A DNA stretch of 64,000 nt from Candidatus Dadabacteria bacterium. GTDB lineage: Bacteria > Desulfobacterota_D > UBA1144 > Nemesobacterales > Nemesobacteraceae. A program made the translations under genes and the position numbers. The notes below the pieces were generated by a model. The model was not told the DNA's origin. It saw only the letters and a program-made list of their open reading frames with translations, and did not search any database. Below are positions 56,194 through 63,200 of the stretch, one piece after another. The stretch lies in NCBI GenBank assembly GCA_951812735.1, contig OX638332.1, positions 18,508 through 82,507 on the forward strand. Reading direction: 5' to 3'. Numbering within the stretch: position 1 is the stretch's first letter; each line of letters begins with the position of its first letter.

Positions 56194-57651
56194 GTGAAGA
56201 TTAAAATACACGGGATTTTCTTAAGTTTGTTTTTTGCACTTGGTGTTAGTTTCTTATTCGGCACCGAAACGTCCGCTCATGAATACAGGGGTTATTCCCA
56301 CAGGTCGGACCTCGATGTAAGTGCGGAAAACGTCGGTATTGGAGATGTAGATTATGCGGATTCCATAGAAAAAATAACTCTTCACATAGCAGAGCACATT
56401 GCCCTGATTCAGGGGGACTCAAGCCTCAGCCGCCCGGAGCAAGCCAAAGAATTGGTGATACTGGCACAACGGACGAGGGAGCGTGGGGTCTTCAATAACG
56501 GCGAGGTCTACTTCATACTTGTAAATCCCGAGGGATATATAGTAAATCACGGGTTGTATTCCGACCTGCATTTCAGCAAGTATCTCCCTTCTTTCGAGTT
56601 TAGAGATGAGAGCGGCATGACGACCGGAACTGTGCAGACACTGCTCGACAGCGAGGGCGAGGACCCGACATGCGTAGATTACCACTATGACGGACAAGAT
56701 AGAAAGGTATGTGCAATGGGTACGGAGGTCTTCTCCGCCGGTGGCCATACAATCATTGTAATGGGTCTTCATCACGCAAAGGATGACTATGATCTAATCG
56801 AGAGAGACAATCCTAACTGCAATGACCCCCTGTTTAGCCTTCCCGTCACTGCAAAGCAGGTCAACGATGAGGAAGACCCGGAAGAGAAGGAAGAACTTCT
56901 CAAGCAATATGTAAAAGCAGTTGCCGAGAAATTCAAAGAACGTCAGGACAGGGTAGCATCGGAACTACTCGAAGATGACCCTGACCTCGTCCGTCTTGCC
57001 ACAGGACTTGTTCAGGACAGCACACCGGAACAGATACAGTCTGCGGGGGAAGAACTCGAAGAAGAATCTGTCCGGATATCTCTCAGGACAACAGGCTGTA
57101 TCGGCAAAGGAGATTACAGCGAGGGTTCTATATATCCTTTCATGCTGGAACCAGTCGAGGGCCTCGCTGTTCTAAACGGACTTGATTTTCATCTCTACGG
57201 AGTAAGCGTCTCGTTAACCGACCCTGACCCGATTCAGTGCGACGGAGCAAATATTCTGGAGGCTTTTCGCAATGTAGTGACAGATGGAAGCGGAGACCTA
57301 GCGGATTTGGCAGTGGGGAATAACGGCTTCGTTACGTATCATTGGGACCACCCCGAGCTTGAGGACAACAACGAGGGATATCTTGAAAAAGACGAAGTCC
57401 CAGGCTTCTCCATAAAGAAAAGCTATATTGAGGTGATAGACGTAACACCACCTGAGTTTTCCGCTCTTGCTCCTCCGTCTTGGCGTATCGTCGGTTCAGG
57501 AATTTATCTCGACGACGCAGAATACTGTAAAGAGGGGGACGAAGGGTGCGCAATTGCCGCAACCGCCAATACGCCTCAAAGCACTTTGCTTAACCTGTTT
57601 TTGATAGCGTCCGTCTTGTTCTCGGCTGTTTTCTTGAGAAAGCATATTTAG
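56194..57651 (+). CDS. Secreted, C-terminally membrane-anchored protein. It has a split Cache_2-like sensor fold interrupted by an acidic insertion of about 200 aa. No output domain.
   Basis: Signal peptide. GEVYFILVNPEGYIVNHG (Cache N-terminal strand motif). GFVTYHWDHP...KKSYIEVI...WRIVGSGIYLDD (Cache_2 C-terminal motif). C-terminal TM plus RKHI. AT-rich. Confidence 0.55.
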   Translation: MKIKIHGIFLSLFFALGVSFLFGTETSAHEYRGYSHRSDLDVSAENVGIGDVDYADSIEKITLHIAEHIALIQGDSSLSRPEQAKELVILAQRTRERGVFNNGEVYFILVNPEGYIVNHGLYSDLHFSKYLPSFEFRDESGMTTGTVQTLLDSEGEDPTCVDYHYDGQDRKVCAMGTEVFSAGGHTIIVMGLHHAKDDYDLIERDNPNCNDPLFSLPVTAKQVNDEEDPEEKEELLKQYVKAVAEKFKERQDRVASELLEDDPDLVRLATGLVQDSTPEQIQSAGEELEEESVRISLRTTGCIGKGDYSEGSIYPFMLEPVEGLAVLNGLDFHLYGVSVSLTDPDPIQCDGANILEAFRNVVTDGSGDLADLAVGNNGFVTYHWDHPELEDNNEGYLEKDEVPGFSIKKSYIEVIDVTPPEFSALAPPSWRIVGSGIYLDDAEYCKEGDEGCAIAATANTPQSTLLNLFLIASVLFSAVFLRKHI

Positions 57652-57831
57652 ACAGAGCAGGCGAAACGAAGGAACTGGGAATTCTCTCCCGGCTGGATAT
57701 ACCCCTCCCCGAATTTTCCCTTGACAACACATCGGTTTTTGCTAGAATTAAAAAGAAATTTAGACAAGGCTAAAATAATTTTTTGCCTGTATGAATCTTA
57801 GGCGATCTTTTTGGAGATTAGAGAGGAAAAA

Positions 57832-59483: not shown

Positions 59484-60259
59484 TGAGCGGAAGAGGGGAA
59501 AATCCGGTCGCTCCGGCGATCCGTGTGACGGACCTCACGGTTGCTTACGGCGACAAGACCGTTCTTTGGGATATAGATCTTGAAATTCCAAAGGGATCGA
59601 TGGTTGCAGTTGTGGGGCCAAACGGCGCCGGCAAGACAACGCTCATAAAATCCATACAGGGTCTTCTTCCCCGCGTCGCGGGGGTCATATCCATCCACGG
59701 CAAATCTTACGAAAAGCAGAGAAAAGAAGTCAGTTACGTTCCCCAGAGAGGTTCTGTGGACTGGGATTTTCCAACGTCCGTTGTGGATACGGTGAAAATG
59801 GGAAGTTACGGGGACCTTGGATGGATAAGGCGTCCCGGAAGAAAGGAACACGAAAAGGCGCTCGGTGCGCTTGAGAAAGTCGATATGCTTGAGTTTGCCC
59901 AGAGGCAGATAAGCCAGCTCTCGGGGGGACAGCAGCAGAGGGTCTTTCTCGCGAGAGCCCTTGTTCAGAGTGCCTCGGTCTATCTGCTTGATGAGCCTTT
60001 CCAGGGGGTTGACGCCACGACCGAAAAAGCGATAGTCACGATACTGAAAGAGCTTGTCGGCGGGGGGAAGACGGTGCTCGCGGTTCATCACGACCTTAAC
60101 ACAGTTTCCGAGTACTACGAACGTATTGCCATTCTTAACGTGGGGCTTGTGGCATCGGGAAGGGTGGAGGATGTTTTCAATTCCGAGAACCTGATGAAGG
60201 CTTACGGGGGCAAAACCTCCTTTTTCCCCGAGAGAAAAGCGGCCAAAAGGGCAGTGTGA
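59480..60259 (+). CDS. Metal ABC transporter ATP-binding protein.
   Basis: Walker A GPNGAGKTT, signature LSGGQQQR, Walker B LLDEP. Confidence 0.9.
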   Translation: MMSGRGENPVAPAIRVTDLTVAYGDKTVLWDIDLEIPKGSMVAVVGPNGAGKTTLIKSIQGLLPRVAGVISIHGKSYEKQRKEVSYVPQRGSVDWDFPTSVVDTVKMGSYGDLGWIRRPGRKEHEKALGALEKVDMLEFAQRQISQLSGGQQQRVFLARALVQSASVYLLDEPFQGVDATTEKAIVTILKELVGGGKTVLAVHHDLNTVSEYYERIAILNVGLVASGRVEDVFNSENLMKAYGGKTSFFPERKAAKRAV

Positions 60260-61383
60260 TGCTTGAATTTGCGGTTGAGCTTTTCTCTGACTATACGGCC
60301 AGGACCATTTTGCTTGGAGCGGCTTCTCTCGGAGTCGTAAGCGGCGTGGTGGGCTCGTACGCGGTGCTTAGAAAGCAGAGCCTCGTGGGTGACGTCATGT
60401 CTCACGCGGCGCTTCCCGGAATAGTGCTTGCCTTCATGATAGTGGGAGTTAAGGAACAGCTCCCGATTTTTATCGGGGCCGCTCTCTCCGCCGTTCTGGC
60501 GGTTTTTGTAATCAATCTCGTAACGCGGAATTCAAGGGTAAAGACTGACAGCGCTATGGGAATAGCGCTTTCGGTTTTTTTCGGGCTGGGGCTTGTTCTT
60601 TTAACCTACGTGCAGAGAATGCCCGATGCCAATCAGGCGGGGCTCGATAAGTTCCTTTTCGGTCAGGCCGAGGCGCTTGTCGAAAAAGACGTTCTGATTA
60701 TAGGTCTTACGGGTTTTTTCGCCCTTTTGGTCGTGGGACTTTTCTGGAAGGAGTTCAAGCTTCTCTGTTTCGACCCGGATTTCGGCGGGACCATGGGTTT
60801 TTCCATGAAGTCTCTCGACATACTCGTTACGGCCGTAATAGTTTCGGCAATAGTGATCGGGCTGCAGACCGTAGGGGTCGTGCTCATGAGCTCAATGCTG
60901 ATCGCTCCCGCGGTTGCGGCTAGGCAGTGGACCGGCACCATGGGTTCTATGGTGATTCTCGCGGCCATTATAGCGGCGGTCTCTGGTGTTACTGGCGTTG
61001 CGCTTAGTGCCGGGTTCGAGAACGTACCGACTGGACCCGCTGTTATAGTCTGCGTGAGCGTCATCGCTTTTTTTTCCGTTCTTTTCTCCCCGAACGGATT
61101 TTTCACCCTGAAACTCAAAGACGCGCGAAGCAGGAGGGAAATAAAAAAGGATTACGTCCTAAAAGCCCTGCACGATCTTGCGCTTGAGCATGATGACCCC
61201 GGCTACGCGCACTCTGAGAGGCTGCTTGCGCTTGGAAGCGAGAAGGGGTTTAGCGTTAAAAAAAGTCTCTGGGCACTTCGGACGGCGGGATACGTGGAAA
61301 GTGTGGGGGAAGACAACTGGCGTCTTACCCAAAGCGGTATTCGCGAGGTTAAGAAACTTTCCCCGTTGGAGAAAGACCTATGA
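60256..61383 (+). CDS. ABC-3 family metal transporter permease with a C-terminal DtxR-like winged-helix extension of about 90 aa.
   Basis: TM core of about 280 aa. The tail KDYVLKALHDL...SVKKSLWALRTAGYVESVGEDNWRLTQSGIREV aligns by eye with the wHTH of the adjacent DtxR regulator. Confidence 0.8.
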   Translation: MMLEFAVELFSDYTARTILLGAASLGVVSGVVGSYAVLRKQSLVGDVMSHAALPGIVLAFMIVGVKEQLPIFIGAALSAVLAVFVINLVTRNSRVKTDSAMGIALSVFFGLGLVLLTYVQRMPDANQAGLDKFLFGQAEALVEKDVLIIGLTGFFALLVVGLFWKEFKLLCFDPDFGGTMGFSMKSLDILVTAVIVSAIVIGLQTVGVVLMSSMLIAPAVAARQWTGTMGSMVILAAIIAAVSGVTGVALSAGFENVPTGPAVIVCVSVIAFFSVLFSPNGFFTLKLKDARSRREIKKDYVLKALHDLALEHDDPGYAHSERLLALGSEKGFSVKKSLWALRTAGYVESVGEDNWRLTQSGIREVKKLSPLEKDL

Positions 61384-62480
61384 GTCCGCATCAGTTCGAT
61401 ATACAGCTGGTAGCCATTATAGTGGCGGCTTCATGCTCCATACCCGGGGCGTTTCTTGTTCTCAGAAGAATGTCCATGATGACCGATGCGATCAGCCACT
61501 CCATTCTGCTCGGCATAATACTCGCTTTTTTCCTCGTAAAGGACTTGTCGTCGCCGATTCTCATAATAGGGGCTGCCGCAAGCGGAGTGCTTGCGATTTC
61601 CCTCATAGAGGCGGTCAACCGCTCAAGGCTGGTGAAAAAGGACGCGTCCATAGGAATCGTCTTCCCGTTTCTTTTCAGCGTGGCGGTCATACTGCTTTCC
61701 AAATACGCGCGAAACGTGCATATCGACACCCACTCCGTGCTTCTTGGGGAGATAGCGTTTGCTCCTTTTGACCGGTTCATTCTCTCGGGGATGGACATGG
61801 GACCCAAATCGGCCTACGTGATGGGTTCAATTCTTCTTTTGAACCTGTTTTTTATCTCCTTTTTCTACAAGGAACTCAAGGTGTCGACTTTTGACGAGAG
61901 CTTCGCGTCGTCAATAGGCTTTCGTCCCCGCCTGATTCACTATCTGCTTATGGCGGTCGTGTCGTTTACCTGCGTGGGAGCGTTTGACGCCGTGGGCTCG
62001 ATACTGGTTATAGCTCTCATAGTGATTCCGCCTTGCTGCGCCTATCTTCTTACGGATTCGCTTTCCAGGATGATTTTCCTGAGCGTGGTTTTCGGCATTT
62101 CGGCTGCCATCTCCGGATTCTGGGTCGCCAACTGGCTTGACGTAAACATAGCGGGCTCAATGGCCTTTGTGTGCGGTGTGTTTTTCCTTGTGGTTTTTCT
62201 CCTTGCTCCAGAAAGGGGACTTTTCGGCATAATGAGAGAAAAAAGGAGACAGAGAATGGATTTTGCCGAGGCCTCGCTTCTCGTGAGTCTCTACAATCAG
62301 GAAAAAGGGGAAGCGGTAAAAAACCATCCCGACAGCAGGGGGATGTTTCAGTCCACTGACTTCGCCTCGAAAGTGGTCGGGTTTCTAAAAGGGAAGGGGG
62401 AAATAGCCGTTACGGGTGGAGGGCTTTTTCTTACTGAGAAAGGAAGAGAAAGAGCACGGATGACTTTGGAAGGGAGATAG
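61380..62480 (+). CDS. Second ABC-3 permease, also with a C-terminal DtxR-like wHTH extension.
   Basis: TM core. The tail ...FASKVVGFLKGKGEIAVTGGGLFLTEKGRERARMTL is wHTH-like. Confidence 0.8.
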   Translation: MSPHQFDIQLVAIIVAASCSIPGAFLVLRRMSMMTDAISHSILLGIILAFFLVKDLSSPILIIGAAASGVLAISLIEAVNRSRLVKKDASIGIVFPFLFSVAVILLSKYARNVHIDTHSVLLGEIAFAPFDRFILSGMDMGPKSAYVMGSILLLNLFFISFFYKELKVSTFDESFASSIGFRPRLIHYLLMAVVSFTCVGAFDAVGSILVIALIVIPPCCAYLLTDSLSRMIFLSVVFGISAAISGFWVANWLDVNIAGSMAFVCGVFFLVVFLLAPERGLFGIMREKRRQRMDFAEASLLVSLYNQEKGEAVKNHPDSRGMFQSTDFASKVVGFLKGKGEIAVTGGGLFLTEKGRERARMTLEGR

Positions 62481-62510: not shown

Positions 62511-63200
62511 TCATAGTATTTCAATTTCCTCCGCATCCACGGTCTTACCTATGAGCAGTTCCCCCTTATGTACCCTGATCTTGCGTCCCTCGACTATTTC
62601 TTCACACGGAAGATTTCGTTCGTCGTCTCTTTCTATATTTGTTCCTGATGTTAGATTGACTGCTACTTCTGTTTCGCTGCCCTCAGATGATATTGTTACC
62701 TTTATGCTTCCGGTCTTTGAGGTCTCACTAAAACAGTTTTTCGAGTCTACCTGCCCCTCAAAATCTACGTTAATGTAACCATAGTTTGTGACTCCATTCT
62801 CGATGGAGATATCTTGAATGTCGACCGTCGCCCCGGGGAAAACGGGAACCCTTATCGTGCCTAGCGGAGGATTTTCATTCCCGCTCTCAAGAATTTCAAG
62901 CTCAGCTGTTGGATCGAGATTACCCTCTATGTAAAAATCGTTCCCTATAGAGGTTGTATCCTCGCAGCAAGCTACTGTTTCGTTTACTACACTTGCTCTC
63001 ACAATAAGGTTTGAATTTCTGTCTATATCTGGAATTTCCTTGATGAATCCCATAATTACTTCATTTTCTTCCACATCATCGTCATTCCCGGTTCCGCCCC
63101 CAAAATCGATATCCAGGCCACATCCTGAAACTGCGAATAAGGAAATAAAAAGGAAAAACAGGTAGATTTTCACCGCGCTTGCGCGGGTTTCGGTATGCAT
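62511..63200 (-). CDS. Hypothetical acidic lipoprotein (AT-rich).
   Basis: Signal plus lipobox FAVSGC. No recognisable domains. Confidence 0.45.
   Translation of the reverse strand: MHTETRASAVKIYLFFLFISLFAVSGCGLDIDFGGGTGNDDDVEENEVIMGFIKEIPDIDRNSNLIVRASVVNETVACCEDTTSIGNDFYIEGNLDPTAELEILESGNENPPLGTIRVPVFPGATVDIQDISIENGVTNYGYINVDFEGQVDSKNCFSETSKTGSIKVTISSEGSETEVAVNLTSGTNIERDDERNLPCEEIVEGRKIRVHKGELLIGKTVDAEEIEIL

Follow-up and report, generated by a model that had tools for sequence, protein, structure and literature searches.

The 64,000-nucleotide stretch of Candidatus Dadabacteria DNA analysed here (contig OX638332.1, positions 18,508 to 82,507; referred to as the window and numbered from its first nucleotide) contains five co-directional open reading frames (ORFs) between 57832 and 62480, which encode a regulator, a substrate-binding protein, an ATPase and two permeases in that order (R-A-B-C-D). 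These coordinates and this gene order had been given in an earlier sequence-only reading of the same DNA and were confirmed by ORF calls. Sequence evidence strongly supports the region from 57.7 to 62.5 kb as a single operon that encodes an ABC-3 (type II) importer of the Tro/Mnt type for divalent transition metals, with the gene for a DtxR/MntR-type repressor leading (Table 1). Beyond its membrane core, each permease continues into a C-terminal tail, and these tails are the subject of this report. We consider it highly probable that they are conserved cytoplasmic winged-helix domains, and profile comparison strongly supports the two as paralogues of one domain family without a Pfam or NCBIfam model.

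Table 1. Features of the metal-importer operon and its upstream region (window positions; aa, amino acids; nt, nucleotides; pLDDT, predicted local distance difference test)
Feature	Position	Strand	Basis
Sigma-70-type promoter-like site, TTGACA-16 nt-TAGAAT, TG before -10 hexamer	57721-57748	+	11/12 matches
Candidate DtxR-type operator, imperfect dyad ATTTAG-acaagg-CTAAAAT	57758-57776	.	By eye, just downstream of -10 hexamer
DtxR/MntR-family metalloregulator, 219 aa	57832-58491	+	Pfam Fe_dep_repress 1.1e-19, Fe_dep_repr_C 3.7e-32, FeoA/SH3-like 1.1e-16
ZnuA/TroA/MntC-family substrate-binding protein, 327 aa	58500-59483	+	Pfam ZnuA 4.5e-80
ABC ATPase (ABC, ATP-binding cassette), 259 aa	59480-60259	+	Pfam ABC_tran 4.5e-31
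Permease 1, 375 aa, TroC position	60256-61383	+	Pfam ABC-3, residues 16-277
Permease 1 membrane core, residues 1-280	60256-61095	+	Pfam ABC-3 6.4e-67; aligns to PsaC residues 4-277
Tail 1, cytoplasmic winged-helix domain, residues 281-375 and stop	61096-61383	+	AlphaFold2 pLDDT 81; Foldseek; alignment A2
Tail 1 His/Asp cluster H312-D313-D314-P-G-Y317-A-H319, putative metal site	61189-61212	+	H1/H2 junction; conservation in A2
Permease 2, 366 aa, TroD position	61380-62480	+	Pfam ABC-3, residues 10-274
Permease 2 membrane core, residues 1-280	61380-62219	+	Pfam ABC-3 8.2e-45; aligns to PsaC residues 20-272
Tail 2, cytoplasmic winged-helix domain, residues 281-366 and stop	62220-62480	+	AlphaFold2 pLDDT 83; Foldseek; family profile

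The two permeases scored 226.2 bits (permease 1) and 153.8 bits (permease 2) against the Pfam family ABC-3 (PF00950), for which the gathering cut-off is 20.1. PsaBC and ZnuBC have a homologous membrane core with an Asp/His site in transmembrane helix 2 (TM2), as do the window permeases, where permease 1 keeps the coordination pair as D46/H50 and permease 2 as D36/H40. In PsaC, D46/H50 form the coordination site needed for manganese import (PMC8346216). Both membrane cores look like those of working transporter subunits. PsaC (282 residues) and ZnuB (260 residues), the only ABC-3 permeases with solved structures, can be aligned as far as residues 273-289 of the window permeases and then end, which leaves an extra tail of about 90 residues on each window permease; as neither protein has a C-terminal domain, no solved structure places the tail. 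The measured tails, 61096-61380 and 62220-62477 up to the stop codons, lie close to the limits first drawn from the sequence (about 61108-61383 and 62232-62480).

In the databases, hundreds of proteins match these permeases in length and align over 98-100% of the query at identities down to 55%, and pairs of long permeases occur on unrelated contigs, either as proteins of 374 and 365 residues followed by a DtxR gene or as a DtxR gene followed by proteins of 378 and 369 residues. Identity within Dadabacteria is 82% in the tail and 94% in the core, and across the wider permease-2 family it is 55% and 73%; by these comparisons the tails are clearly under constraint, although they change more rapidly than the membrane cores. 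An artefact, whether a frameshift or read-through that lengthened the permeases, a fused small ORF or a non-functional extension, is exceedingly unlikely and we regard it as ruled out, since the tails are conserved and confidently folded, equal-length homologues number in the hundreds, and the paired architecture recurs in unrelated assemblies. The sequence-only reading had named frameshift-fused ORFs as the risk to its proposal; with architecture and lengths recurring in hundreds of genomes, this is not the case.

The tails are very probably cytoplasmic, as that reading had also proposed. Net charge is about +4 over roughly the first 20 tail residues, and the positive-inside rule predicts such a basic juxtamembrane segment on the membrane's cytoplasmic side. 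PsaC was purified as a C-terminal green fluorescent protein (GFP) fusion, and fusions of this kind generally fluoresce only when the C-terminus is cytoplasmic. A periplasmic location of the tails was rejected on the same two observations, the basic juxtamembrane helix and the GFP fusion.

AlphaFold2 models of the tails were confident (pLDDT 83 for tail 2 and 81 for tail 1). In the predicted topology, a long helix runs on from the membrane and is followed by a loop, helices H2 and H3, a beta-hairpin wing and a final helix, the elements of the tail 1 model being H1, a beta bridge, H2, H3, the hairpin wing and H4. The predicted secondary structure of both tails is that of the winged-helix topology H1-(b1)-H2-H3-b2-b3 with a hairpin wing, and the models strongly support an arrangement in which a long basic helix extends the last transmembrane helix into a compact winged helix. 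The 50 best Foldseek matches of each tail were all winged-helix proteins or domains, none of them at E ≤ 0.001, and E-values above this level are usual for domains of 60-70 residues. For tail 2 the matches included MarR-type domains, MntR, IdeR and LmrR, with the highest identity to MntR and IdeR, and for tail 1 they included AF1382, Thermoplasma acidophilum IdeR (ranks 2-3, 26% identity, 2.6 Å over 69 columns), HrcA, HxlR and MarR. The winged-helix tails of the sequence-only reading are therefore borne out by confident predictions (pLDDT 81-83) and by structural neighbours that are winged-helix proteins throughout, and the label "winged helix" is solid.

The label "DtxR-like" is no more than suggestive. 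Pairwise BLASTP of the two tails against the window regulator was not significant (E = 12 and 1.5) and gave no alignment between tail 1 and tail 2, and Pfam and NCBIfam scans of both window tails returned no model (Pfam to E ≤ 1), Fe_dep_repress included, so that the Fe_dep_repress-like match expected on both tails did not appear. For comparison at the family level we used an alignment of 55 non-redundant tail-2 sequences (A1) and one of 25 tail-1 sequences (A2), the latter being all the matches of an exhaustive representative search made with tail 1 alone, which is too insensitive for a census. The tail-1 and tail-2 families proved homologous to each other by hhalign (94%, E 1.2e-7, 85 columns). 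Against the N-terminal domain of the regulator family (121 sequences), tail 2 scored 25.4 and tail 1 scored 23.8, where reversed profiles scored 9-14 and 40 column shuffles of each profile had a mean of about 10, a standard deviation of 1.9 and maxima of 14.3 and 16.6. The tail scores thus lie 7-8 standard deviations over the shuffles, the controls being shuffled and reversed profiles, and the associated probabilities are just 47% and 32%. The tail-1 alignment covers DtxR residues 7-73 and sets DYVLKAL against EDYLKAI and WRLTQSG against VKLTPAG. This is the register that had been drawn by eye for tail 1. The claimed likeness to the regulator's winged helix emerges, weakly, from the comparison of profiles and not from that of single sequences.

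Searched against PDB, the tail-2 profile had IdeR, MntR and DtxR as its best matches (27 of the 33 matches, E 0.006-0.2), aligned in the register of the recognition helix, the wing and H4. The tail-1 profile placed eS10 winged helices first (E 0.007) and DtxR-family entries at E 0.4-0.5, which speaks against kinship with DtxR, and the MarR, eS10, AF1382 and HxlR winged-helix families match the tails about equally well. A Pfam scan of family members touched scattered winged-helix families (HemN_C, WH_AprA, HVO_A0261_N and MarR_2), with Fe_dep_repress appearing once among the 25 tail-1 relatives (E 0.095) and, for the 55 tail-2 relatives, absent from the best 25 of 37 families. The DtxR family is nevertheless among the best sequence and structure matches of the tails, as the sequence-only reading had it: the N-terminal domain of DtxR, IdeR and MntR (PF01325) is the best or near-best match by PDB profile search and Foldseek, and shares with the tails the fold, the order of elements, the hydrophobic pattern and an ...LT..G... 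sequence after the wing. It differs from them in its basic DNA-contact region, the tails' equivalent not being basic, and in that the MntR ligand positions of the D8/E11 type are not conserved in the tails in the hhalign register. Also missing from the tails is PF02742, the domain for dimerisation and metal binding: Pfam finds no match to it, and the tails end 13-16 residues past the wing. Since they lack defining features, the tails were not accepted as members of PF01325 or of the DtxR repressor family proper. From these sequence comparisons, we regard the tails as a distinct winged-helix family. Its nearest relatives among transcription factors are probably DtxR and MntR, from whose N-terminal domain it probably branched off very long ago.

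To survey ABC-3 permeases with winged-helix tails, species-representative genomes were searched with two short tail-2 peptide patterns taken from the alignment of an 8-sequence subset. At least 600 places were matched and at least 477 species genomes were confirmed as holding relatives, so fusions of this kind are widespread; as the patterns contain the His motif described below, the count is a minimum and favours copies that bear the motif. Tail-2 relatives occur in Chloroflexota (Ardenticatenaceae, Anaerolineae and Thermomicrobiales), Poribacteria, Zixibacteria, Ignavibacteria, Actinomycetota, Gemmataceae, Acidobacteriota and Desulfobulbaceae, including the cultured Desulfobulbus alkaliphilus, and the domain is found in free-living genomes of 5-6 Mb. 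We fetched 80 loci (up to 6 kb on each side) and scored their ORFs with hidden Markov models of the core, tail 1, tail 2 and DtxR; 72 loci were evaluable. Both tails are present at 34 of the 72, in almost every lineage other than Poribacteria, and 12 of these 34 have a DtxR gene in the fetched locus. Tail 2 together with a short first permease was found at 36 loci, 33 of them from Poribacteria, with a DtxR gene at 34, and tail 2 with no adjacent first permease found at the remaining two, both from Poribacteria and neither with a DtxR gene. A tail on the second permease only is thus seen at 38 loci in all, and a DtxR gene at 46 of the 72. The survey strongly supports a tail family that sits on the TroD-position permease in many phyla and, outside Poribacteria, usually on the first permease too. 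Double tails and an adjoining DtxR gene appear to be inversely associated.

Nearly all Poribacteria (loci L017-L082; 33 of 36 evaluable) carry the tail on the second permease alone and almost always have an adjoining DtxR gene. Some relatives, among them P0251 (415 residues) and the permeases of loci L004, L014, L027 and L038, have apparent N-terminal extensions or are called as ORFs that span both permeases. The long ORFs of high-GC genomes are probably over-extensions by the ORF caller, but the database protein P0251 does have about 40 genuine additional residues at its N-terminus.

Conservation within the tail families is concentrated in a cluster of His and acidic residues around the junction of H1 and H2. 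In the tail-2 family (A1), H23, H27, E28 and the Glu of column 37 are nearly invariant, and His is frequent at two further positions, column 42 (46/51 sequences) and column 46 (39/55). These His are arranged as a first HxxxH pair where H1 ends and a second on H2, and two Glu lie between the pairs. In the tail-1 family (A2), H32 and H39 are present in 25/25 sequences, Asp or Glu at position 34 in 23/25, and His or Tyr at position 37 in 21/25. The His at the end of H1 coincides between the two families in the profile-profile alignment. Tail 2 of the window has S303 and Q307 in place of His, plus a four-residue deletion, and judged by its residues the operon has one intact putative site (tail 1) and one degenerate putative site (tail 2). 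The Dadabacteria copies of tail 2, that of the window (permease 2 residues 303-320) and those of relatives P0128-P0130, have lost the cluster in the same way, apart from E28, and share a clade-specific HPDSR motif instead.

The surface with which DtxR domains contact DNA has a different character in the tails. Exposed positions of the recognition helix (H3) are variable, whereas a Trp and a Phe are conserved. The net charge over H3, wing and H4 is +1.6 and +0.5 in the two tail families versus +6.7 ± 2.0 in 121 DtxR domains, and the basic, conserved recognition helix and wing of a DNA-binding winged helix are missing from the tails. The globular part of the tails is net negative and holds 3.5-4.8 His, versus 1.1 in DtxR domains. 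Taken together, conserved residues and charge suggest the signature of a transition-metal site and not of a DNA-binding surface.

Four-nucleotide overlaps at the last three ORF junctions suggest translational coupling. The regulator ORF has an alternative TTG start at 57811, which would give a protein of 226 residues, and its top NCBIfam match is the Thermus-type MntR model (189 bits against a cut-off of 350). Besides a PF02742 domain detected by Pfam, the regulator has a C-terminal FeoA/SH3-like domain (residues 145-216), which is also present in DtxR and in the Treponema denticola TroR and is absent in the T. pallidum TroR. The substrate-binding protein begins with a signal- or lipoprotein-like sequence and is matched below cut-off by the NCBIfam models for AztC, EfaA and MntC; the ATPase, of ordinary length, has Mn and Mn/Fe importer ATPases as its top NCBIfam matches. 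As to metal preference, NCBIfam models for Mn, Mn/Fe and Zn all match, each below its cut-off. Among relatives, both the R-A-B-C-D and the A-B-C-D-R gene orders are seen.

The promoter-like sequence listed in Table 1 is the best sigma-70-type site of the region and lies just upstream of the regulator gene. The TTAG/CTAA half-sites of the dyad that follows it presumably recall the operator boxes of DtxR and IdeR, and the dyad might, on weak grounds of sequence and position, be an autoregulatory operator for the whole operon; an inverted-repeat search (seed 6) upstream of the regulator gene reported no repeat, this dyad included. An Rfam scan of 56-64 kb had no match. Directly upstream of the promoter lies an ORF of 485 residues (56194-57651, + strand) with a signal-like N-terminus, an acidic low-complexity middle and a hydrophobic C-terminal segment ending ...LFLIASVLFSAVFLRKHI, which may be a sorting or anchor signal. 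Downstream, a convergent ORF of 229 residues (62511-63200, - strand) with a lipoprotein-like N-terminus (LFAVSGC) ends 31 nucleotides past the permease 2 stop codon and marks the end of the operon.

Several known systems bear on the interpretation of the tails. The tro operon of Treponema has the same gene content as the window operon, namely genes for a binding protein of the ZnuA family, an ATPase, a pair of ABC-3 permeases and a repressor of the DtxR family, and its TroD proteins have 366/367 residues and its TroC proteins 304/298 residues (PMC2628430). A short TroC with a long TroD corresponds to the tail-2-only pattern of 36/72 surveyed loci, and TroD has the size of window permease 2 (366 residues). 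In tro the regulator gene is last and the first permease is short, whereas in the window the regulator gene is first and the first permease is tailed; the resemblance to tro (A-B-C-D-R with the regulator moved in front) claimed in the sequence-only reading thus holds for gene content and order and does not extend to the first permease. A 2026 preprint predicts a C-terminal winged helix on the T. pallidum TroD and presents it as an unreported, unique domain combination that arose by domain consolidation in a reduced genome (bioRxiv 10.64898/2026.05.05.717303). From its length and from that prediction, the TroD tail would be homologous to tail 2.

In Chlamydia trachomatis, YtgCR (CT069) is reported to consist of an ABC-3 permease and a complete DtxR-type repressor, YtgR, which is cleaved off and represses ytg and trpBA, and YtgCR-like permease-repressor fusions are reported in 11 phyla (PMC7755916, PMC5599777). 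YtgCR resembles permease 1 in having a DtxR-family module at the cytoplasmic C-terminus of a TroC-position ABC-3 permease, and the alignment of tail 1 with DtxR residues 7-73 puts the beginning of this tail at the point expected for YtgR. YtgR, however, is a complete repressor of about 28-30 kDa that has conserved DtxR metal ligands, is cleaved and binds DNA, whereas the window tails are of about 10 kDa, comprise just a winged helix of about 90 residues instead of a complete repressor, have neither the dimerisation and metal-binding domain nor the basic surface, possess a His/acid cluster of their own, and are accompanied by a separate full-length repressor.

The regulatory domains of MetN (C2), ModC and MalK likewise are small cytoplasmic domains on a transporter subunit; their likeness to the tails lies in the proposed working only. 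They have other folds and bind methionine, molybdate or EIIAGlc. Such trans-inhibition domains sit on the C-terminus of the ATPase, whereas in the window the domain is on the permeases and the ATPase is untailed. In the literature searched, no trans-inhibition-type regulation of ABC-3 metal importers is described, and that literature, including papers on Bacillus subtilis ABC models and on Deinococcus manganese transport, holds no other description of the short tail; the Pfam assignments of all listed homologues are PF00950 and PF01032 only.

A coupling of transport to regulation, which the sequence-only reading had raised, is plausible, although in a form different from the one envisaged there: direct metal sensing is suggested because the tails combine a conserved His/Asp/Glu cluster with the loss of the basic DNA-binding surface. 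We propose tentatively, with more doubt than assent, that the tails are cytoplasmic metal sensors that throttle the pump as imported metal accumulates. As the cytoplasmic level of the transported metal rises, an ion would be bound by the cluster at the junction of helices 1 and 2, and the metal-loaded tails would then restrain the ATPase or the permease. Such feedback (trans-) inhibition at the protein level would be faster than transcriptional repression by the soluble DtxR protein and would run in parallel to it. In the window organism the cluster is retained only in tail 1 (H312, D314, Y317 and H319), and tail 2 would serve as a structural partner; the site in tail 2 being degenerate, sensing here would depend on tail 1. 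The fuller account, in which a former DtxR DNA-binding domain lost DNA binding, gained a His/Glu/Asp site and now shuts the pump as cytoplasmic metal rises, as a widespread unrecognised class, seems to us somewhat unlikely in its entirety.

Several points weigh against metal sensing. That the conserved His and acidic residues make up one site, and that the tails contact the ATPase, is what we infer from sequence. All ABC-importer trans-inhibition domains that we know of (MetN, ModC and MalK) are on the ATPase and not on a permease. Of the five nearly invariant ligands of the tail-2 family, window tail 2 has kept only E28; window tail 1 is more basic than the family average (+4 over H3-H4); and the survey, whose search patterns included the His motif, gives no measure of motif loss. 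The one studied permease-DtxR fusion, YtgCR, is reported to act by DNA binding after cleavage (PMC7755916, PMC5599777).

Other roles for the tails account for part of these observations. The tails might stabilise the permease heterodimer, clamp the ATPase dimer or pass exiting metal to cytoplasmic acceptors, with no regulation of rate. Winged helices are often protein-binding modules, and the best PDB sequence matches of tail 1 are the eS10 ribosomal winged helices; a paralogous pair of tails on two subunits is as expected of a heterodimer contact; window tail 2 is 72% conserved within its clade without a His cluster; and a His/acid cluster fits transient metal binding as well as sensing. PsaBC and ZnuBC work without tails, however, and 38/72 loci have one tail, therefore the tails are not needed for assembly, and the five or six near-invariant potential ligands of most tail-2 sequences exceed what a docking surface needs. 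We rate a structural or hand-off role as rather unlikely. Binding of the tails to the operon operator, either tethered at the membrane (compare ToxR and CadC) or after proteolytic release, with the heterodimer supplying dimerisation, has a precedent in YtgC-YtgR, where the DtxR repressor is reported to be cleaved off and to repress ytg, and such fusions are reported from 11 phyla. In fold and in their best matches among transcription factors the tails resemble the DNA-binding domains of DtxR, IdeR and MntR, a heterodimer with its two tails could imitate a dimer, the H3-H4 region of window tail 1 is basic, as noted above, and the preprint labels the TroD tail a "winged helix DNA-binding domain" (bioRxiv 10.64898/2026.05.05.717303). 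What makes DNA binding improbable is that the tails have no dimerisation/metal-binding domain, that their H3-wing-H4 region is near neutral where true DtxR domains are basic, and that exposed recognition-helix positions are not conserved whereas Trp and Phe are. In addition, Pfam recognises neither window tail and a single tail-1 member touches Fe_dep_repress, the same operon already encodes a complete soluble DtxR repressor, and the ATPase dimer occupies the cytoplasmic face of a working transporter.

The sequence-only reading had suggested a decoy or dimerisation partner, in which the tails would sequester the soluble DtxR regulator and the state of the transporter would set the amount of free repressor. 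A DtxR-family gene is adjacent here and in 46/72 surveyed loci, and the tails have distant homology to the regulator's N-terminal domain. Yet dimerisation in the DtxR family uses domain 2 (PF02742), which the tails do not have; an adjoining DtxR gene is normal for tail-less operons as well, such as tro and mnt; the fetched locus contains a DtxR gene at just 12/34 double-tailed loci; T. pallidum keeps a TroD of 367 residues alongside a minimal TroR of 153 residues; and no role would be left for the conserved His/acid cluster. We find this docking very doubtful, and the decoy proposal was not upheld. The T. pallidum TroR of 153 residues is without the 70-residue C-terminal extension (SH3-like domain) of the T. 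denticola TroR (PMC2628430). Contact between the tail and the SH3-like domain was rejected as a general mechanism, since T. pallidum TroR has no such domain and TroD is still long.

A DtxR-like module on an ABC-3 permease is already known as a kind. What appears to be new is that its short, domain-2-less form makes up a large family in big free-living genomes, that the tail is commonly on both permeases, and that the tail family has its own conserved His/acid signature. A domain family is thereby identified beyond the Pfam and NCBIfam models, and it apparently includes TroD of the syphilis spirochaete. The survey corrects the preprint's view of the TroD winged helix as an oddity of genome reduction, and it links YtgCR of Chlamydia to a much wider and more ancient tendency for DtxR-like modules to be joined to ABC-3 permeases. 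High-affinity importers of Mn, Fe and Zn need fast shut-off to avoid metal poisoning, and to our knowledge transcriptional control (by DtxR/MntR, Fur or Zur) is the only kind established for them. A His-cluster domain on the permeases of at least 477 species offers a mutable handle for testing post-translational feedback. Should the tails indeed restrain the pump when metal builds up, they would provide the first case of trans-inhibition in an ABC importer of transition metals, and the first in which the permease and not the ATPase carries the mechanism.

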